Source of the DNA: Escherichia coli
GTDB taxonomy: Bacteria; Pseudomonadota; Gammaproteobacteria; Enterobacterales; Enterobacteriaceae
NCBI RefSeq assembly: GCF_024223415.1
Contig: NZ_CP100500.1
Length of the DNA stretch: 64,000 bases
Reading direction: 5' to 3' (one strand)
Shown: piece by piece, positions 1-50,180 of the stretch
How positions within the stretch are numbered: the stretch's first letter is position 1
How the letters are laid out: each line of letters opens with the position of its first letter
Notes under the pieces: generated by a model
Databases searched by the model: none
Seen by the model: only the letters and a program-made list of their open reading frames with translations
What the model was told of the DNA's origin: nothing
Position numbers and translations under genes: made by a program

Positions 1-5563
<5,563 letters not shown>

Positions 5564-5875
5564 GCTTACCTTCCCTGAACGAGCTAACATAAATGCGCCC
5601 TTTCTAGCACAGCGAAAAAATGTAAATCCTGATAGCAATATGATTGAAAATTAATAACTTTTCGTTAAGCAGTTTTGGGTGTGAGTTGCAAGAGGGGAGA
5701 CTACTGAATTACTCAAGTTTTGTAATCGAGGGGAAAATGGTGATGGCGTTCATAGCAAAACGCCCTCAACCATAAAGGTCGAGGGCGCTTAAGATGTCAA
5801 AAACCCGCTATCCGTTAAAAAGCAATGCTCAACTAAGGTCAGTGACATTGCGCTAAAAAGCGAATTTTTAGAATT

Positions 5876-5951
5876 TGGCTCCTCTGACTGGACTCGAACC
5901 AGTGACATACGGATTAACAGTCCGCCGTTCTACCGACTGAACTACAGAGGA
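5876..5951 (-). tRNA. asnT: tRNA-Asn (GTT)
   Basis: Reverse complement reads TCCTCTGTAGTTCAGTCGGTAGAACGGCGGACTGTTAATCCG...GAGGAGCCA with cloverleaf and CCA end. Confidence 0.9.
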
Positions 5952-6051
5952 ATCGTGAGAACGGGGCGCATATTACTTAGCGGTACCTTGTCTGTCAACA
6001 CTAAATTTCATAAGTCATTTCAATTGGTTAATTAATCCGCAAAGTTGTTAA

Positions 6052-6849
6052 TTAATGAACATTCGTCGCCGAAAACGAGTCTGTATCATTAGCGTGATGC
6101 AGTCTCTGCAAAGGATCTTGTTGATAAAATTGGCAGAAACGTTGCCACAATGAAGGGAAACGAGGAGCAAAAAGTTCTGGGGCGCTAAAGAAATATTCAG
6201 AAAGTACGGCAAAACACTCAGCAGGATCACTGGCAGCATAAGCATCGATGCTCGCCGCATTCTCGCCAACTAATTCGATTTCTTCCTGAATGTTGTTCAT
6301 TGCAGCATGAAGATCGTGTTCCCAGCCAGCAACCTCACGCAACGGAATAAAGGGAACTCCGCTGGCGCGATCGCCGTTACGGGTGTCCAGCTTATGAGCG
6401 ACTTCATGAATAATCAGGTTAAAACCAGAAGCATCAAAAGAATCTTGTATATCCAACCAGTTCAAAACGATAGGCCCTTGCTGCCAGCTCTGACCTGACT
6501 GAACAATACGTTGGTTATGCACCAGACCGATATCGTCTTCCCATTCGTCATCGACCACAAATGGCGCAGGATAAATTAAGACTTCATGAAAACCATCCAG
6601 CCATTCCAGTCCTAACTCCAGAACGGGCAGGCAAAATAGAAGTGCTATCCGGCAGCTTCTTAATGAATCCAGTTCAAAGTCCTGTAAAGGAACAAGCCGC
6701 TTTTGCTGTAAAAAACGTTCGGCAAGAGTGACTAATTTGCTTTGTTCCTGTTCCGTCAGACACGTTAAAAGGGGGATCGATAGTGCTTCCTGCCAGGGAA
6801 GGGCAGTTTGATGTGCTGATTCTTGTACTTTCCAGGGCCACTTAATCAT
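6052..6849 (-). CDS. mtfA: Mlc titration factor A (265 aa)
   Basis: ORF 6052..6888; product begins [28 protein letters not shown] at internal Met; length matches MtfA. Confidence 0.85.
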
Positions 6850-6942
6850 CGTTTTGCTCGCAAACTCGTCACTTGAACAAAATTGCACGGACAGGGACTG
6901 TTAAAATGCCAAATTTCCTGGCATCATGGCAACCATCTGAAC

Positions 6943-7032
6943 GGAGAGATGCCGGAGCGGCTGAACGGACCGGTCTCGAAAACCGGAGTAGGGGCAACTC
7001 TACCGGGGGTTCAAATCCCCCTCTCTCCGCCA
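6943..7032 (+). tRNA. serU: tRNA-Ser (CGA)
   Basis: GGAGAGATGCCGGAGCGGCTGAACGGACCGGTCTCGAAAACCGG...CTCTCCGCCA, long variable arm, anticodon CGA. Confidence 0.9.
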
Positions 7033-7586
7033 CTTTATCAATGACTTATCTCCCGACTTACCGCCTTGCTTTTCCTAAACAGAACAATCGTAGAATATTC
7101 TTGAAGGGTTAGATCGTCACTGTTTTCTGTTCGATACTGTGACATTCAGCACTTGATTCGCTATGGATCTGACAGGAAGGTTTCGAGCGAAAATCTGCAG
7201 TTATTCAGTCGTTTTCTTATCGGTCACCATTATTCTTTTAGACATTGATCCTACGAAGCTGCCGCAAAGTTGGTGGTGGGAACTGAAGTTGCGTAGAGAA
7301 GGGGTCAATAATTGAGCCAAAAAAGGAACGCGGCCGTCAGATTAAAGCCGCGGGACAAAGTCCATAATTTCCAAGAGTTGTTGAATTTCCCAGCTTTTTT
7401 GAAAGCCTTTGTATCATACTAACAAGTAAAAAAGGTTTAAATACCAAAATTAACCTATATTTCTGGTTAGCTTTACCATGACAGATGACTTGCTCCTGGA
7501 GACATTGGCGCTGCCAGTCTGTATTGGTGAGTTGTGTATTTATTGTTCGCCGCTTTCTCGGTTTTTTTCTACAGACATAATAAAAA

Positions 7587-7613
7587 AGACACGTCTCAAG
7601 CATGAGCGTGTCT
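7587..7613. terminator. Hairpin (AGACACG..CGTGTCT) flanked by A/T runs, probable bidirectional intrinsic terminator downstream of zinT
   Basis: 7-bp inverted repeat with 13-nt loop, T-rich on both sides; about 90 bp past the zinT stop. Confidence 0.45.
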
Positions 7614-7701
7614 GAGTTTGTTTTATTTATTTGTCTTGGTAAATTATTGTCGTTACTACCAGGCACTGTTCTGTTAAATAATTGAAGTCAGCGCAAAAAA
7701 A

Positions 7702-8352
7702 TCAATGAGACATCATCTCCTCGACCACTTCTTCGCTACTCAACTGATAGGGATAATACGTTGGCCAGTTTTCCATTTCATTCAATAAAGATTGCTGTGA
7801 ATCATTACCCATAAAAATGTGAAAATGAGATGATTTTCGTGGTGCAATTATATGATCGCTAAATTGAATATATTTAGGGGCTTTGCTTTCAGGATCTTTA
7901 CATTCGAATAAGTAACGAACGCCTTTCTTGCCTGATTTATAGGTGAGTATTTTGTATCCCTCGTAATCATATTTACAGGATGTTGTTTCATTATTTCTAT
8001 GGAATTCAACAATGCCGTCCTCAATGCCAATCATCTCGATATCTGTCGCATAACCTTTGTGATAATAATCTTTAATTTCAGCAAATGTTTTAGTTTTATC
8101 TGCATCCGCTTTCTTCTGAAAGACGGGATCAAGTTTGCCACTTTGCAGTAAAGGATAAACGGATTGCCAGACTCCATCCCAGTCACTGAGCGTTCGATTT
8201 TGTACATTGGCATCATCAAAAACACCATTAGCAGCTTTTTGTTCGATCTCTGTTAAAGGTTTGCCGTGTGAGTGATGACCATGCGAAAAGGCAGGAGCGC
8301 TAACAATAAAGACGCCTAAAGCAACAGCCAGTTTATGAAGACGAATCGCCAA
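7702..8352 (-). CDS. zinT: Zinc/cadmium-binding periplasmic protein ZinT (216 aa)
   Basis: [30 protein letters not shown]..., His-rich N-terminus, lipocalin-like fold signature. Confidence 0.9.
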
Positions 8353-8388
8353 AACAGTTTCCTCCAGAGTTATTGTACATGATGTGTT

Positions 8389-8405
8389 ATGTTATATTGT
8401 AACAT
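8389..8405. promoter_or_regulatory. Zur box-like palindrome upstream of zinT
   Basis: ATGTTATATTGTAACAT, imperfect palindrome matching the Zur consensus core (TGTTATA-N-TATAACA), about 40 bp upstream of the zinT start. Confidence 0.55.
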
Positions 8406-8546
8406 ATGGCGAAATGCAATAACTCTTAGAAAACGAGAGCATAGTTTTCTCAGGTGTATTTACCTATCTTATTGAAATAAAATAAATTATGTCGATGATT
8501 TGAGGTTGATGACAAACGAAACATAACCTGATGCGATCTGTGTGGG

Positions 8547-8575
8547 CCGGATAAGGCGCTCGCGCCGCATCCGGC
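8547..8575. repeat. REP (repetitive extragenic palindrome) element
   Basis: GCCGGATAAGGCGCTCGCGCCGCATCCGGC, classic REP palindrome downstream of msrQ. Confidence 0.7.
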
Positions 8576-8608
8576 AGGGATAACGCGTACTTTGTCGGCA
8601 ATATGAAG

Positions 8609-9244
8609 TTATAGAGATAATTTGTTGTGAACCTGCTTGCGTAACCGGTTGAAAAAGGAAAGCAACTTCTTATACCGTAAGGCTAAAAGCAGTACCGCCA
8701 GCCCAGCGTAGATGAGCGGCTGCGGTGAAATAATCTTCACTGACCACAGATAATGTATTGGGGCCAGGATCGCGACAAGATAGACGAAATTATGCAACTG
8801 TTGCCAGTGCTTGCCGAGTTTTCGCTGCATCGCCTGGGTTGAAGTAAACGCTAAAGCAAGCAAAATAACCCAGCTGATAATTCCTAACGTTAAATAAGGC
8901 CGGGTAATTAACTCCTTACCTAATAACGCCAGATTATTCACGCCCAGCTCCAGCAATGCGTAACTGGTTAAATGCAGTGTCGCCCAGGCAAAGCACCATA
9001 AGCCTAACAGGCGGCGAGTGCGTATCAATAACGGCTGTTTTGCGTAGCGTGCCAGAGGTGTGATTAACAAGGTCGCCAGCAAAAATTTCAGTGCAGTGCG
9101 ACCGGTAAAATGCTGAATATCTTTCACTGGATCGGCACCCAGTCCACCGTGATTGATCGCCCAGACCAGCCAGAGAAACGGCAACAATCCGGCAAGATGC
9201 AGGCAAACTTTCAGCCATGTCACCTGTTTTGCTGTCAGACGCAT
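8609..9244 (-). CDS. msrQ: Methionine sulfoxide reductase heme-binding membrane subunit MsrQ (211 aa)
   Basis: [26 protein letters not shown]..., polytopic membrane protein; adjacent to msrP. Confidence 0.85.
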
Positions 9245-10255
<1,011 letters not shown>

Positions 10256-17402: not shown

Positions 17403-18821
17403 ATGCAGGAAAATATATCAGTAACCGATTCATACAGCACCGGGAATGCCGCACAGGCAATGCTGGAGAAACTGCTGCAAATTTATGATGTTAAAACGCT
17501 GGTGGCGCAGCTTAATGGTGTGGGTGAGAATCACTGGAGCGCGGCAATTTTAAAACGTGCGCTGGCGAATGACTCGGCATGGCACCGTTTAAGTGAGAAA
17601 GAGTTCGCCCATCTGCAAACGTTGTTACCCAAACCACCGGCACATCATCCGCATTATGCGTTTCGCTTTATCGATCTATTTGCCGGAATTGGCGGCATCC
17701 GTCGCGGTTTTGAATTGATTGGCGGACAATGCGTGTTTACCAGCGAATGGAACAAACATGCGGTACGCACTTATAAAGCCAACCATTATTGCGATCCGGC
17801 GACGCATCATTTTAATGAAGATATCCGCGATATCACCCTCAGCCATAAAGAAGGCGTGAGTGATGAGGCGGCGGCGGAACATATTCGTCAACACATTCCT
17901 GAACACGATGTTTTACTGGCCGGTTTCCCTTGTCAGCCATTTTCGCTGGCTGGCGTATCGAAAAAGAACTCGCTCGGGCGGGCGCACGGTTTTGCCTGCG
18001 ATACCCAGGGCACGCTGTTTTTTGATGTGGTACGCATTATCGACGCGCGTCGTCCGGCGATGTTTGTGCTCGAAAACGTCAAAAACCTGAAAAGTCACGA
18101 CCAGGGTAAAACGTTCCGCATCATCATGCAGACGCTGGACGAACTGGGCTATGACGTGGCTGATGCAGAAGATAACGGGCCGGACGATCCGAAAATCATC
18201 GATGGTAAACATTTTCTGCCGCAGCACCGTGAACGCATCGTGCTGGTGGGTTTTCGTCGCGATCTTAATCTGAAAGCCGATTTTACTCTGCGTGATATCA
18301 GCGAATGTTTCCCTGCACAGCGAGTGACGCTGGCGCAGCTGTTGGACCCGATGGTCGAGGCGAAATATATCCTGACGCCGGTGCTGTGGAAGTACCTCTA
18401 TCGATATGCGAAAAAACATCAGGCGCGCGGTAACGGCTTCGGTTATGGAATGGTTTATCCGAACAATCCGCAAAGCGTCACGCGTACGCTGTCTGCGCGT
18501 TATTACAAAGATGGCGCGGAAATTTTAATCGATCGCGGCTGGGATATGGCCACGGGTGAGAAAGATTTTGACGATCCGCTGAATCAGCAACATCGTCCAC
18601 GTCGGTTAACGCCTCGGGAATGCGCGCGCTTAATGGGTTTTGAAGCGCCGGGAGAAGCGAAATTCCGCATTCCGGTTTCGGACACTCAGGCCTATCGCCA
18701 GTTCGGTAACTCGGTGGTCGTGCCGGTCTTTGCCGCGCTGGCAAAACTGCTTGAGCCAAAAATCAAACAGGCGGTGGCGTTGCGTCAGCAAGAGGCACAA
18801 CATGGCCGACGTTCACGATAA
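17403..18821 (+). CDS. dcm: DNA-cytosine C5 methyltransferase Dcm (472 aa)
   Basis: [12 protein letters not shown] (motif I), GFPCQPFS (motif IV), ENV, QFGNSV motifs. Confidence 0.95.
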
Positions 18822-19272: not shown

Positions 19273-20181
19273 TGCGTCCTGAATAACTGGCGCAACTAAG
19301 GGTTTTGCCGGGAAGAGATATTTTCCCAACGTGACCAGTACCACCGCGAAGACAATTACGCCGAGCGCCAGCCATTCAATCTTCGACAGCGTCTCTCCGC
19401 CCAGTCCCGTACCCAGCAAGACCGCGACCACCGGGTTAACGTAGGCGTAGCTGGTGGCGAGAGCCGGACTGACATTACGGATTAAATACATATAAGCGTT
19501 GATGGCGATAATCGAACCAAACAGCGCCAGATAGCCGACCGCAAGGAAGCCTGAAAGGGAAGGGAGCGCCGTCAGTTTTTCACCTGCAATCATCGACGCG
19601 ATCATTAACACCACGCCTGCCGCCAGCATCTCAATCGCACCCGCCATCATCCCTACAGGTAAGGTAATGCGCGAGCCATAAACCGAGCCAAACGCCCAGC
19701 TAATCGAGCCGATTAAAATCAGAATCGCGCCCCACGGATTGCCGCTTAAATTTCCACCGCTATTGAGCATGATGATTCCGGCAAGCCCAATGGCAATACC
19801 CACCCATTCCAGTTTGCGCGTTTTAATGCCAAACAGGCGGCTGAAGCACAGGGTAAAGAGGGGCACGGTTGCAACCACTACGGCGGCGATGCCGGAAGGA
19901 ACATTTTGATGTTCGGCAACCGTCACCATGCCATTACCGACAGCCAGCAATAATAGGCCAATCAGCGCGGCATTAAGCAGCGGACGTAGCGGGGGGAGTT
20001 TGTGTCCGCGCAGTAGCAAAAATGCCAGCAATAAAATACCGGCTGCCAGGAATCGCACGCCTGCCATCATTAACGGAGGCCAGCTTTCCACGCCAATCCG
20101 AATGACAAAATAGGTTGAGCCCCAAATGATATACAACGCAAACAGCGCGCCAAAAAGCGGTAACAACTGGCGGAAACGCAT
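19261..20181 (-). CDS. yedA: EamA/DMT-family transporter YedA (306 aa)
   Basis: MRFRQLLPLFGALFALYIIWGSTYFVIRIGV..., 10-TM DMT signature. Confidence 0.85.
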   Translation of the reverse strand: MRFRQLLPLFGALFALYIIWGSTYFVIRIGVESWPPLMMAGVRFLAAGILLLAFLLLRGHKLPPLRPLLNAALIGLLLLAVGNGMVTVAEHQNVPSGIAAVVVATVPLFTLCFSRLFGIKTRKLEWVGIAIGLAGIIMLNSGGNLSGNPWGAILILIGSISWAFGSVYGSRITLPVGMMAGAIEMLAAGVVLMIASMIAGEKLTALPSLSGFLAVGYLALFGSIIAINAYMYLIRNVSPALATSYAYVNPVVAVLLGTGLGGETLSKIEWLALGVIVFAVVLVTLGKYLFPAKPLVAPVIQDASSE

Positions 20182-20353
20182 AATCCCTCACGGTGGAAAT
20201 AAAAAGGTGGGTCATAGTAAACGTGAAAATCATTCTGCTGACGAGAGATATAATTGCACTTGATTGTTAAAAAAATGTTGACCTGTGAAGCAAGTATCAG
20301 AGCTGCCGTTTTTGCTTCATACTTACACCCTTCAACAATAAAAATGAGAGGGA

Positions 20354-21271
20354 ATGCTTTTGGCCGGGAGTAGTTTACTGACGTTGCTCGATGATATCGC
20401 CACACTGCTGGACGATATCTCCGTGATGGGCAAACTGGCGGCGAAGAAAACCGCCGGTGTATTAGGGGATGACTTATCGCTCAATGCGCAACAAGTTTCA
20501 GGCGTGCGGGCCAACCGGGAACTTCCCGTGGTCTGGGGCGTGGCGAAAGGATCGCTGATTAATAAAGTGATTCTGGTGCCGCTGGCGCTGATCATCAGTG
20601 CGTTTATCCCGTGGGCGATTACGCCTCTGTTGATGATTGGTGGCGCGTTTCTCTGCTTTGAAGGAGTAGAGAAAGTGCTGCATATGCTGGAGGCTCGTAA
20701 ACATAAAGAAGATCCGGCGCAGAGCCAGCAGCGTCTGGAGAAGCTGGCGGCGCAGGATCCGCTGAAGTTTGAAAAGGACAAAATAAAAGGGGCGATTCGT
20801 ACCGATTTTATATTGTCTGCGGAAATCGTCGCCATCACGCTGGGGATTGTGGCCGAAGCGCCGTTGCTTAATCAGGTGCTGGTGCTTTCAGGCATCGCGC
20901 TGGTAGTGACCGTGGGCGTCTACGGTCTGGTAGGGGTTATCGTTAAGATTGATGACCTGGGGTATTGGCTGGCGGAAAAATCCAGCGCGCTGATGCAGGC
21001 ATTAGGTAAAGGGTTATTGATCATTGCGCCCTGGTTGATGAAAGCATTATCGATTGTCGGCACGCTGGCGATGTTCCTCGTCGGCGGCGGGATTGTGGTA
21101 CATGGTATTGCGCCGCTGCATCACGCCATTGAACATTTCGCCGGGCAGCAAAGTGCAGTGGTGGCGATGATATTACCGACTGTTTTAAATCTGATTCTTG
21201 GATTTATCATCGGCGGCATCGTGGTGCTGGGAGTGAAAGCCGTAGCGAAAATACGCGGTCAGGCACATTAA
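20354..21271 (+). CDS. yedI: DUF808 inner-membrane protein YedI (305 aa)
   Basis: [41 protein letters not shown]... Confidence 0.85.
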
Positions 21272-21349
21272 TACTCGCACAGGCTATTATGCAAAATTCG
21301 CCATCTTCAACTAAGGTGAACAAGTTTCACTCGAAAAAAGGAGGCGAGT

Positions 21350-21592
21350 ATGAGCTTTATGGTTAGTGAGGAAGTTACGGTTAAAGAGGGCGGCCCGCGG
21401 ATGATTGTCACTGGATACTCCAGCGGTATGGTTGAGTGTCGTTGGTATGACGGTTACGGGGTCAAGCGGGAGCTTTTCATGAAACCGAGCTTGTTCCGGG
21501 GGAGGGGAGTCGTTCTGCGGAAGAAGTTTGAAAGGGTATCATTAACACCAGGCCGGATCACATCCGGCCTGGTGTGCCAATGCCTGCAATGA
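21350..21592 (+). pseudogene. yodC: yodC (DUF2158), probably frameshifted: present frame gives 80 aa; a -1-nt correction after codon 41 gives a 60-aa product ending at 21529..21531
   Basis: First 41 codons MSFMVSEEVTVKEGGPRMIVTGYSSGMVECRWYDGYGVKRE; the alternative frame continues FHETELVPGEGSRSAEEV-stop, while the in-frame tail reads through a perfect hairpin. Confidence 0.5.
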
Positions 21593-21701
21593 ATGATAGT
21601 CGCGTCTTATCATGCCACCATTATAAAATTATCGCTGTTTTGCGGTACGCTATCGCCAGGTTATGCCAGAATCATAAAAAAGCAGGTTGGGAGTCGTCAG
21701 G

Positions 21702-24226
<2,525 letters not shown>

Positions 24227-26833: not shown

Positions 26834-27103
26834 CTACCCGATGGTATACGGCAGGTTAGTGAACAAGGTGCGGACGTAATCCAGCAACAGATTGAGCATC
26901 CACGGTCCGGCAATAATAATGGCAATAAATACGGCGATGATTTTCGGAATAAACGACAGCGTCATTTCGTTAATCTGGGTGGCGGCCTGCAAAATACTGA
27001 TGATAAGGCCCGTGACCAACGCTACCAACAATAGCGGGGCAGCCAGTGCCAGCGCGACTTTCATCGCTTCAGTCCCCATCATCATGACCGATTCAGGTGT
27101 CAT
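26834..27103 (-). CDS. fliQ: Flagellar export apparatus protein FliQ (89 aa)
   Basis: [55 protein letters not shown]... Confidence 0.9.
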
Positions 27104-39543: not shown

Positions 39544-40175
39544 TATACGTTAAGATGCAGCTACAGCAGAAATTGCCACTGTTAATTTTTTCATCGTGAG
39601 CCTTTTATTTGAACTATTATTTAAAAATGATGTCACTGCACTACAAATATTCATCCAATCAATGAGATTATTTCAAGATGTAAGTTTTAGTTTCTCATTT
39701 AAATTGTGAAGTAGATCCCTATCTTTATCTGAACTGTTTCTATTGCACACAATGCATGACTATTTTGTGAACGAATATAAATTTGGTAGTTAAATTATAT
39801 TAAAGGTTGTTATTTATGATTGACTCATAATTTATTTATTTAATTTAAATAGCCTAGAAATAACCATGGAAATTATTTGCATGATGTTTGTTTAGATTTA
39901 TTAATGTAATTGAGGTGGTTTTATTTAATACGCAATATAGCGCCGCTTGATATTAGTTCTATTTTTTTTGCGTAAGATAGATGAGACAAACTGAGACGCA
40001 TAATGGTTTGCAAGGCTCTAATACTTTGATGTTGAGGATGTGATGGGGCATGTACGGGGCATAGTACAATGATGTCCATGCTGGTGTAGATAATCTCCAG
40101 GCTTATCCGGTGCGCCGTAAAACCCCGTCCTTCAGGGCAGGGATATAAGGCGTGGTTTTCCACCTGACCAGGTGT

Positions 40176-40595
40176 TTGCTGTTGTTCAATGTATTGGCGG
40201 ATGACGGATATTGGCGCACCTCCGCAGCTACTGGCAAAATAGCCAGGACTCCACAAAACGCCTTTGTAGTAATACCTGACTGCAATATCTGGTCGATCTC
40301 GTCGCAGTCACCTACCCGATACGCCTTTGAGGCTGTTTACCAGACTGGATATCGCCAGTTTGGGAGGATAGTTAATTAACAAATGGACGTGATCTGGTTC
40401 GCCATCCATTTCAACCAGTTCAGCTTCAAAATCAGCACATACATTTGAAAAGTAAGTGCGTAGTTTTTCTGTCGCGTCATGGTCAAAAATCTGACGTCGG
40501 TATCTGGTGACAAAGACCAGGTGAACATGCATCAGGAAAACACAATGCCTTCCACGCCGGATATCGGTTTCTTTTTTCACAGACCAAAGTATCAT
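40176..40595 (-). pseudogene. tnpA: tnpA (HUH Y1 transposase of IS200/IS605 family) interrupted by an in-frame TGA
   Basis: N-part MILWSVKKETDIRRGRHCVFLMHVHLVFVTRYRR...EPDHVHLL (HUH motif) ends at TGA 40308..40310; same frame continues LRRDRPDIAVRYYYKGVLWSPGYFASSCGGAPISVIRQYIEQQ (catalytic Tyr region). Confidence 0.75.
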
Positions 40596-40602
40596 TTGGC
40601 CT

Positions 40603-41811
40603 GTGAAACGACTACAAGCATTTAAATTCCAGTTAAGACCCGGTGGTCAACAGGAGCGTGAAATGAGGCGCTTCGCAGGCGCATGTCGTTTCGTTTTCAA
40701 TCGTGCTCTGGCACGTCAGAATGAGAATCATGAGGTCGGTAATAAATACATCCCTTACGGGAAAATGGCTTCCTGGCTGGTTGAGTGGAAAAATGCCACT
40801 GAAACGCAATGGCTTAAAGATGCCCCGTCACAGCCATTGCAACAGTCACTGAAAGACCTTGAGCGGGCTTACAAAAACTTCTTCCAGAATCGGGCTGCTT
40901 TTCCCCGATTCAAAAAGCGGGGACAGAATGATGTATTCCGCTACCCGCAGGGCGTTAAGCTCGATCAGGAAAACAGCCGTATTTTTCTGCCGAAACTGGG
41001 CTGGATGCGCTACCGGAACAGCCGTCAGGTCACGGGTGTTGTGAAAAATGTCACTGTCAGCCAGTCCTGCGGTAAGTGGTACATCAGTATTCAGACAGAA
41101 AGTGAAGTATCAACTCCGGTTCACCCTTCAGCATCAATGGTCGGGCTGGATGCTGGCGTGGCTAAACTCGCCACGCTGTCAGATGGCACAGTCTTTGAGC
41201 CTGTAAACAGTTTTCAGAAAAACCAGAAGAAGCTGGCGAGACTTCAGCGACAGTTAAGCCGCAAGGTCAAATTCAGCAACAACTGGCAGAAGCAGAAACG
41301 CAAAATACAGCGACTGCATTCCTGTATCGCAAATATCCGCAGGGACTACCTTCACAAAGTCACAACGACCGTCAGCAAAAACCACGCAATGATAGTCATT
41401 GAGGATTTGAAGGTCAGCAACATGTCAAAGTCAGCAGCGGGTACGGTCAGCCAGCCGGGGCGCAATGTCCGGGCAAAATCAGGTTTAAACCGTTCGATAC
41501 TGGATCAGGGCTGGTATGAAATGCGCCGCCAGCTTGAGTACAAGCAGCTCTGGCGTGGCGGTCAGGTGCTTGCTGTTCCGCCAGCGTACACAAGCCAGCG
41601 TTGCGCGTGCTGTGGTCATACAGAGAAAGAAAACCGCCTGTCACAAAGTAAATTCAGATGCCAGGTATGTGGATATACAGCGAACGCCGATGTAAATGGC
41701 GCTCGTAACATTTTAGCGGCGGGGCACGCCGTTCTTGCCTGTGGAGAGATGGTGCAGTCAGGCCGCCCGTTGAAGCAGGAACCCACCGAAATGATTCAGG
41801 CGACAGCCTGA
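40603..41811 (+). CDS. tnpB: TnpB (IS605 OrfB family RNA-guided endonuclease), apparently intact, 402 aa
   Basis: RuvC-I ([12 protein letters not shown]), RuvC-II ([11 protein letters not shown]), zinc finger CACCGH...CQVCG, RuvC-III ([10 protein letters not shown]). Confidence 0.85.
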
Positions 41812-48719: not shown

Positions 48720-50180
48720 ATGGCACAAGTCATTAATACAAACAGCCTGTCGCTGTTGACCCAGAATAACCTGAACAAATCTCAGTCTTCTCTTGGCTCT
48801 GCTATTGAGCGTCTCTCTTCTGGCCTGCGTATTAACAGTGCTAAAGATGACGCAGCAGGTCAGGCGATTGCTAACCGTTTTACGGCAAATATTAAAGGTC
48901 TGACTCAGGCTTCCCGTAACGCGAATGATGGTATTTCTGTTGCGCAGACTACTGAAGGTGCGCTGAATGAAATTAACAACAACCTGCAGCGTGTACGTGA
49001 ACTGACTGTTCAGGCAACTAACGGTACTAACTCTGACAGCGATCTTTCTTCTATTCAGGCAGAAATTACTCAACGTCTGGAAGAAATTGACCGTGTATCT
49101 GAGCAAACTCAGTTTAACGGCGTGAAAGTCCTTGCCGAAAATAATGAAATGAAAATTCAGGTTGGTGCTAATGATGGGGAAACCATCACTATCAATCTGG
49201 CAAAAATTGATGCGAAAACTCTCGGCCTGGACGGCTTTAATATCGATGGCGCGCAGAAAGCAACTGGCAGTGACCTGATTTCTAAATTTAAAGCGACAGG
49301 TACTGATAATTATCAAATTAACGGTACTGATAACTATACTGTTAATGTAGATAGTGGAGCAGTTCAAAATGAGGATGGTGACGCAATTTTTGTTAGCGCT
49401 ACCGATGGTTCTCTGACTACTAAGAGTGATACAAAAGTCGGTGGTACAGGTATTGATGCGACTGGGCTTGCAAAAGCCGCAGTTTCTTTAGCTAAAGATG
49501 CCTCAATTAAATACCAAGGTATTACTTTCACCAACAAAGGCACTGGTGCATTTGATGGCAGTGGTAACGGCACTCTAACCGCTAATATTGATGGCAAAGA
49601 TGTAACCTTTACTATTGATGCGACAGGGAAGGACGCAACATTAAAAACGTCTGATCCTGTTTACAAAAATAGTGCAGGTCAGTTCACTACAACTAAGGTT
49701 GAAAACAAAGCCGCTACAGCATCGGATCTGGACTTAAATAACGCTAAAAAAGTGGGTAGTTCTTTAGTTGTAAATGGCGCTGATTATGAAGTTAGCGCTG
49801 ATGGTAAGACAGTAACTGGGCTTGGTAAAACTATGTATCTGAGCAAATCAGAAGGTGGTAGCCCGATTCTGGTAAAAGAAGATGCAGCAAAATCGTTGCA
49901 ATCTACTACCAACCCGCTCGAAACCATCGACAAGGCATTGGCTAAAGTTGACAATCTGCGTTCTGACCTCGGTGCAGTACAAAACCGTTTCGACTCTGCT
50001 ATCACCAACCTTGGCAACACCGTAAACAACCTGTCTTCTGCCCGTAGCCGTATCGAAGATGCTGACTACGCGACCGAAGTGTCTAACATGTCTCGTGCGC
50101 AGATCCTGCAACAAGCGGGTACCTCTGTTCTGGCGCAGGCTAACCAGACCACGCAGAACGTACTGTCTCTGCTGCGTTAA
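48720..50180 (+). CDS. fliC: Flagellin FliC (486 aa; non-K-12 H-antigen allele)
   Basis: MAQVINTNSLSLLTQNNLNKSQSSLGSAIERLSSGLRINSAKDDAAGQAIANRF...SRIEDADYATEVSNMSRAQILQQAGTSVLAQANQTTQNVLSLLR. Confidence 0.95.
   Translation: MAQVINTNSLSLLTQNNLNKSQSSLGSAIERLSSGLRINSAKDDAAGQAIANRFTANIKGLTQASRNANDGISVAQTTEGALNEINNNLQRVRELTVQATNGTNSDSDLSSIQAEITQRLEEIDRVSEQTQFNGVKVLAENNEMKIQVGANDGETITINLAKIDAKTLGLDGFNIDGAQKATGSDLISKFKATGTDNYQINGTDNYTVNVDSGAVQNEDGDAIFVSATDGSLTTKSDTKVGGTGIDATGLAKAAVSLAKDASIKYQGITFTNKGTGAFDGSGNGTLTANIDGKDVTFTIDATGKDATLKTSDPVYKNSAGQFTTTKVENKAATASDLDLNNAKKVGSSLVVNGADYEVSADGKTVTGLGKTMYLSKSEGGSPILVKEDAAKSLQSTTNPLETIDKALAKVDNLRSDLGAVQNRFDSAITNLGNTVNNLSSARSRIEDADYATEVSNMSRAQILQQAGTSVLAQANQTTQNVLSLLR

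Follow-up and report, generated by a model that had tools for sequence, protein, structure and literature searches.

The window, that is, the whole stretch of 64,000 nucleotides analysed in this study, comes from an Escherichia coli genome (contig NZ_CP100500.1). As listed in Table 1, a yodC allele lies in the window between two intact genes, yedI and dgcQ. Annotated E. coli genomes also have the order yedI-yodC-dgcQ, and the DNA is nearly identical to theirs; thus, the gene sits at the orthologous position. The ORF has 80 codons, and its translation is exactly the one quoted in the original prediction, which was made from the letters of this DNA and regarded yodC as frameshifted by a one-base deletion. 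In an alignment with K-12 and strain 503025, the promoter region, the Shine-Dalgarno sequence, and the start codon are the same as in the references. Since the Shine-Dalgarno sequence is unchanged, the altered ORF should still be translated. In a promoter scan, the only plus-strand match fell within the yodC ORF (21405-21432); neither the region 5′ of yodC nor the yodC-dgcQ spacer gave a plus-strand promoter-like site.

Table 1. Coordinates of the features at the yodC locus (positions in the window)
Feature	Position	Strand	Remarks
yedI (DUF808)	20354..21271	+	intact 5′ neighbour of yodC; fixes synteny
Shine-Dalgarno sequence AGGAGG	21339..21344	+	5 nt 5′ of the yodC ATG; same in K-12 and strain 503025
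Frameshifted yodC ORF, 80 aa	21350..21592	+	start ATG 21350, stop TGA 21590-21592; residues 1-41 native YodC, residues 42-80 out-of-frame basic tail
Deletion site, codon 41	21470..21472	+	GAG then CTT in the window, GAA GCT in the reference; one A of the AA pair absent
Leftover native-frame coding sequence	21472..21531	+	YodC residues 42-60, then the native stop TGA 21529-21531; no longer in the frame of the yodC ATG
Hairpin (perfect 14-bp stem, 3-nt loop)	21545..21575	.	ACACCAGGCCGGAT CAC ATCCGGCCTGGTGT; 14 nt past the native yodC stop
dgcQ (diguanylate cyclase)	21702..23396	+	intact 3′ neighbour of yodC; start 110 nt past the new yodC stop

What is known of yodC, a small gene induced by stress, is limited. 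The gene is among the sigma-S-bound promoters in E. coli (PMC4447067), and in Salmonella the orthologue is a small protein that depends on sigma-S (PMC5437024). These two studies describe yodC as sigma-S-dependent and assign no function to it. In a transcriptomic study, yodC is mentioned as a hypothetical protein (PMC12356324).

The alignment of yodC with the K-12 MC1000 and strain 503025 sequences has one single-base gap in 292 columns, at 21471/21472. The reference reads AAG CGG GAA GCT TTT CAT (K R E A F H), while the window reads AAG CGG GAG CTT TTC ATG. Thus, a single-base deletion after codon 41 was rightly predicted; the lost base is an A, and not a G of GAGGCT as had been proposed, although the residues inferred for the intact gene, E41 and A42, were right. 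The loss of the A destroys the HindIII site AAGCTT of the reference yodC. The two alleles can be separated by their junction sequences, GGGAGCTTTTC versus GGGAAGCTTTTC.

The deletion replaces YodC residues 42-60 (AFHETELVPGEGSRSAEEV) with 39 unrelated basic residues, and the shifted frame overruns first the old stop codon, which it outlasts by 61 nt, and then the hairpin. The native coding sequence remains in the DNA. The frame from 21475 encodes FHETELVPGEGSRSAEEV and stops at TGA 21529-21531, and a tblastn search matched wild-type YodC residues 42-60 to 21472-21528 at 100% identity. The 60-aa product predicted for this frame is a known protein; the unshifted product of the window would be identical to WP_000009307.1, the 60-aa YodC annotated in K-12 and other strains (MSFMVSEEVTVKEGGPRMIVTGYSSGMVECRWYDGYGVKREAFHETELVPGEGSRSAEEV). 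True YodC orthologues of Salmonella, Citrobacter, Kosakonia, Enterobacter, Klebsiella, and Pantoea are 59-61 aa in length and are in the reference frame. Relative to these orthologues, the reading frame of the window yodC is disrupted, as is typical of pseudogenes.

Could the two frames be joined by the ribosome or the RNA polymerase? A programmed frameshift is expected to have an X XXY YYZ heptamer and a stimulatory structure 5-9 nt downstream, both conserved in homologues. The TTTT at this locus occurs only as C TTT TC, which is no canonical heptamer, and the run is too short for transcriptional slippage. Moreover, no strong structure lies closer than about 70 nt downstream, and all orthologues are coded in one frame. 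Programmed frameshifting and slippage were therefore rejected.

The effect of the deletion on the protein was assessed with the Pfam family, a family alignment, and structure models. The 80-aa form matches PF09926 (DUF2158) with 28.3 bits over residues 9-44, and the 60-aa reference with 31.4 bits; both exceed the cutoff of 22.3. No NCBIfam model matches either form, and the best match of a PDB sequence search, 7bcj, is insignificant (E = 0.75). An exhaustive search of representative sequences gave only 53 relatives, the query being very short; these are alignable, but the view of the family is not deep. In the alignment of 27 sequences, G15, G26, C30, and W32 are invariant, and V9, G14, P16, M18, G35, F43, and L48 show at least 90% conservation; E45 is also conserved. 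The four invariant residues and the GGP motif precede the shift, and the 80-aa product has all of them. The native C-terminal part, namely strands 4-5 with F-x-E-x-x-L and a terminus near residue 60, was not found in the window product. Judged by these comparisons, the locus is a yodC allele whose predicted product is not an intact YodC.

From this alignment, AlphaFold2 confidently predicted wild-type YodC to be a five-strand SH3-like barrel (pLDDT 85.6) with strands at residues 8-11, 18-24, 27-33, 38-44, and 48-50 and a disordered stretch at 51-60. The frameshift hits the predicted strand 4, and residues 42-50 change from AFHETELVP to LFMKPSLFR. Two of the conserved residues, F43 and L48, happen to be encoded in the new frame as well (TTT to TTC and CTT to TTG, respectively). 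In place of the 10-residue acidic tail there are 30 residues, most of them basic; the pI is 4.67 for the 60-aa form and 9.66 for the 80-aa form, and the net charge is -5.4 and +5.5, respectively.

These features bear on the question of whether the 80-aa protein is folded and working, with the SH3-like core kept and only the disordered tail changed. Exchanging 10 acidic for 30 basic tail residues could alter the partners or the localisation of YodC without abolishing its function. Several observations count against a loss of function: F43 and L48 are kept, the Pfam score is above the threshold, and the AlphaFold2 model of the variant retains all five strands (38-43 and 48-50 among them) with a pLDDT of 94 over residues 41-50 and disorder over 51-80. 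In addition, the native tail at 51-60 is itself disordered and variable among orthologues, and the allele persists across two sub-haplotypes, described below, with no second lesion. However, the conserved E45 becomes K, and residue 46, in the turn that joins strands 4 and 5, is now a proline. The model deserves little weight in this respect, since it was guided by the wild-type homologue alignment and is insensitive to such a local change. The new tail derives from intergenic DNA including the hairpin and was never selected as a protein, and frameshifts at many other positions of yodC suggest a simple tolerance of loss. A working 80-aa protein is thus regarded as the main alternative, though clearly less probable than a loss. 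It is still less probable, and in fact doubtful, that the 80-aa form is a working lineage-specific YodC which has an intact SH3-like core and has recruited a 30-residue basic tail from intergenic DNA. If this were true, it would be a small natural case of a frameshift-born coding extension, and the translated hairpin could also affect dgcQ. Rather, YodC function has most likely been lost or strongly impaired.

The hairpin downstream of the native stop codon had also been noticed in the original prediction, as a perfect 11-bp stem at 21546-21574 in the tail of the ORF. The stem is indeed perfect and lies in the tail, but it is longer, with 14 bp at 21545-21575. The RNA folding z-score is -4.2, and the minimum free energy of the surrounding 86 nt is -34.6 kcal/mol. 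The 14-bp palindrome is perfect in the window and in strain 503025; in the K-12 sequence examined, the 5′ arm differs by a C-to-T change, leaving a G-U pair in RNA. The hairpin has the G+C-rich stem-loop of a Rho-independent terminator. On the other hand, the stem is followed by GCCAATGCC and not by a T-run, a terminator scan found no terminator-like site, and Rfam has no match in 20000-24000, the hairpin included.

Only in the deletion allele does this hairpin sit within the translated yodC ORF. Its strength and its location between the native stop and dgcQ raise the alternative that the main effect of the deletion is regulatory: ribosomes crossing the hairpin could change the stability of the yodC mRNA or the read-through of transcription into dgcQ, and the control of c-di-GMP and cellulose could then be altered in the lineage. 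Such an effect is compatible with either a lost or a working YodC. As the main effect, however, it is very improbable, given the lack of a T-run, of a terminator-like site, and of an Rfam element, and given that the new yodC stop still precedes the dgcQ start by 110 nt.

Is the missing base real? The original prediction left a pseudogene, a sequencing error, and a natural variant side by side. If the base were missing through a sequencing or assembly error, the real yodC would be intact. An error private to this assembly would be expected to be absent from other genomes, and the deletion was in fact found in none of the complete RefSeq genomes searched. However, the identical 80-aa protein is encoded on 99 public contigs (150 index blocks in NCBI, ENA, Logan, and UniRef), a count that may hold one sample recorded by several sources. 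CAK1206188.1, SRA11533.1, STQ49559.1, and UniRef100_A0AAD2GEG5 are records of this protein. Three separately assembled loci were then compared with the window, and all three have the deletion. A single SNP in 20,243 bp separates one of them, L006 (GCA_900482235.1), from the window; for another, L004 (Logan SRR29200026), the number of SNPs is 11, and the alignment is gap-free. The third, L005 (GCA_974490515.1), is a separate, lower-quality, and more error-prone assembly. The fetched carriers represent two sub-haplotypes which are 10 SNPs per 20 kb apart. Within yodC, which is a short gene, the window and all three loci are identical.

The window is also clean around this site. Compared with the nearest complete genome, that of NCTC10973 (99.0% identity), it has two single-base indels in 34 kb, including the yodC one. 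The other indel, at 26834, lies in the fliQ-fliR spacer (7 nt versus 8); many complete genomes align there with no gap, indicating a common length polymorphism. All of the 43 other genes compared, from mtfA to fliS, are full length and have no internal stops, and the context of the deletion is an AA pair and not a long homopolymer. The idea of an error-rich assembly was ruled out, since the window is essentially free of other indels and broken genes. Because the same product occurs on 99 contigs, because the three carrier loci differ from one another by SNPs, and because the rest of the window is clean, a sequencing or assembly error appears to be effectively excluded, and its probability is taken to be negligible. 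Among the three options of the original prediction, an inherited natural variant is favoured by the 99 contigs and by the three loci of two sub-haplotypes.

How far has the allele spread? A 70-nt junction query found the yodC deletion in none of the 5,287 RefSeq complete E. coli genomes; every match was below 99%, and all had the extra base. Since this set evidently contains neither the window's own genome nor its clade, the result means absence outside the clade and not a species-wide frequency. When the 381-bp yodC region was used as the query, the best match among the complete genomes was 99.7% identical, and its sole difference was the gap. The exact flanking proteins DgcQ, YedI, and YedP are each found on at least 1000 contigs, and thus the deletion is a derived event on a widespread haplotype.

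Other variants mark the clade more narrowly. The YedA variant common to the window and L004 is on 158 contigs (P0273), and one of its source organisms is named 'Escherichia coli O158/O8:H27'. The L004-type porin was counted on 126 contigs, and 9-10 contigs have the YedJ, FliQ, and Dcm variants of the window type. The contig count of the deletion allele is of the same order as the counts of these clade markers. The deletion is thus older than the split between a large and a small sub-lineage of one H27 clade. A private SNP of the window at 18738 (dcm codon 446) gives Dcm L446, where L004 and L006 have V, and the exact Dcm is on 2 contigs (UTJ28509.1 and WP_254539412.1). The fliC gene of the window (48720-50180) is of the H27 type and shows 99.8-99.9% identity to those of strains including O128:H27 90-9281. 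The whole fli region is intact, and the lineage is thus probably motile. Taken together, sequence comparisons indicate that the yodC deletion is real, vertically inherited, and restricted to one E. coli lineage with H27 flagellin. It could act as a clade marker for this H27 lineage, which has about 100-160 public assemblies.

The best identity to complete genomes is a mosaic along the window: 99.9% for 1-9000 (ES5, G6/7, and MB50), 99.0% for 9000-34000, and 99.3% for 39500-64000 (strain a7). This points to a haplotype formed by recombination or to a clade that the genome collection lacks. The best identity of 99.0% over 25 kb also raised the possibility of Shigella-style mass gene decay. This idea was rejected, since the neighbouring genes compared are all intact and the low identity reflects the mosaic haplotype.

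An IS200/IS605-type element at 39921-41811, between ybcM and yedK, has a tnpA broken into fragments of 111 and 95 aa; its 402-aa TnpB/InsQ ORF is open (40603-41811). In strains a7 and 503025, the tnpA at this site is annotated with an internal stop, and so is the tnpB of a7. The yeeJ gene for an inverse autotransporter adhesin (1-5473, minus strand) has an open frame of 1,866 codons that reaches the left edge of the window, and its Ig-like repeats give internal self-matches at about 400-2100. In strains 503025 and NCTC10973, yeeJ is a pseudogene or truncated.

Damage to yodC is not limited to this lineage. Many other independent frameshift or stop-loss alleles were found in public E. coli assemblies (P0017, P0018, P0019-P0021, P0024, P0027, P0032, and P0034), and the other frameshifts lie at codons 18, 23, 26, 27, 37, 43, and about 51-55. 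Such a number of frameshift and stop-loss alleles suggests that yodC is often damaged and is tolerant of damage. The stop-loss forms P0044-P0054 (130 aa; e.g. P0048) fall into several clusters and run on through the intergenic …EEVLKGIINTRPDH…. One E. coli assembly has a yodC fusion with sequence upstream of dgcQ (in the stop-loss and fusion set of P0044-P0054 and P0041, 82 aa).

The original prediction named homologues in the 80-aa frame as evidence that would speak against it. A few database entries of 76-86 aa have this appearance on the surface. They do not form a conserved 80-aa family; all of them are independent frameshift alleles, in which separate frameshifts join one frame at different codons. 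Salmonella and Citrobacter entries of 80-81 aa were likewise rejected as long homologues, since their extra length is an N-terminal extension from an upstream start call and is not C-terminal. The two proposed comparisons, with K-12 yodC and with other strains, gave the single one-base gap and about 100 carrier contigs, respectively.

The best explanation of these results, with a probability of roughly 0.7, is an inherited yodC deletion in one H27 lineage whose YodC function is most likely lost or strongly impaired, yodC being dispensable. Translation would start at the unchanged Shine-Dalgarno sequence and ATG. Past E41, the ribosome would be in the wrong frame, pass the native stop codon and the hairpin, and release a basic product of 80 aa. 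Thus, an 80-aa protein is presumably made in the carriers. The shift in strand 4 would rewrite the conserved AFHETELVP and the tail. The lineage would tolerate this loss, yodC being a stationary-phase gene that it can do without. The three carrier loci have no further lesions in yodC and so give no hint of ongoing decay, but the gene is too short and the loci are too few for this to carry weight.

For annotation, the yodC of this lineage should be labelled as a frameshifted allele and not as an ordinary 80-aa 'DUF2158 domain-containing protein', the name given by some submitters. The allele adds to the evidence that yodC, a sigma-S-dependent gene, is dispensable in nature. A carrier strain may also serve as a ready-made natural yodC mutant for study.

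Finally, the window allele can be compared with known systems. Small beta-barrels of the SH3-like type, such as NdhS (6a7k_B), the KOW domain of NusG/Spt5, Tudor, and HspQ, resemble YodC in fold only, and no function is transferable from them. The closest counterpart is K-12 yodC (b1957; WP_000009307.1; PF09926, DUF2158), which occupies the same locus between yedI and dgcQ. The 381-bp yodC region of the window shows 98.9% identity to the K-12 lines and 99.7% identity to strain 503025, from which it differs by the gap alone. K-12 and the window have in common residues 1-41, the Shine-Dalgarno sequence, the start codon, and the downstream hairpin. In contrast, the window has one A fewer in codon 41, and its product has 80 aa and a pI of 9.7 instead of 60 aa and a pI of 4.7. 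The other yodC lesion alleles are of the same kind as that of the window, and most of them switch to its alternative frame as well and share its ...GLVCQCLQ stop. They differ in distribution; most of them are known from a single contig and a few from 3-8 contigs, whereas the window allele is on 99 contigs and is clade-wide. The yodC deletion is a case of ordinary lineage-specific gene decay or variation and is nothing new in kind.
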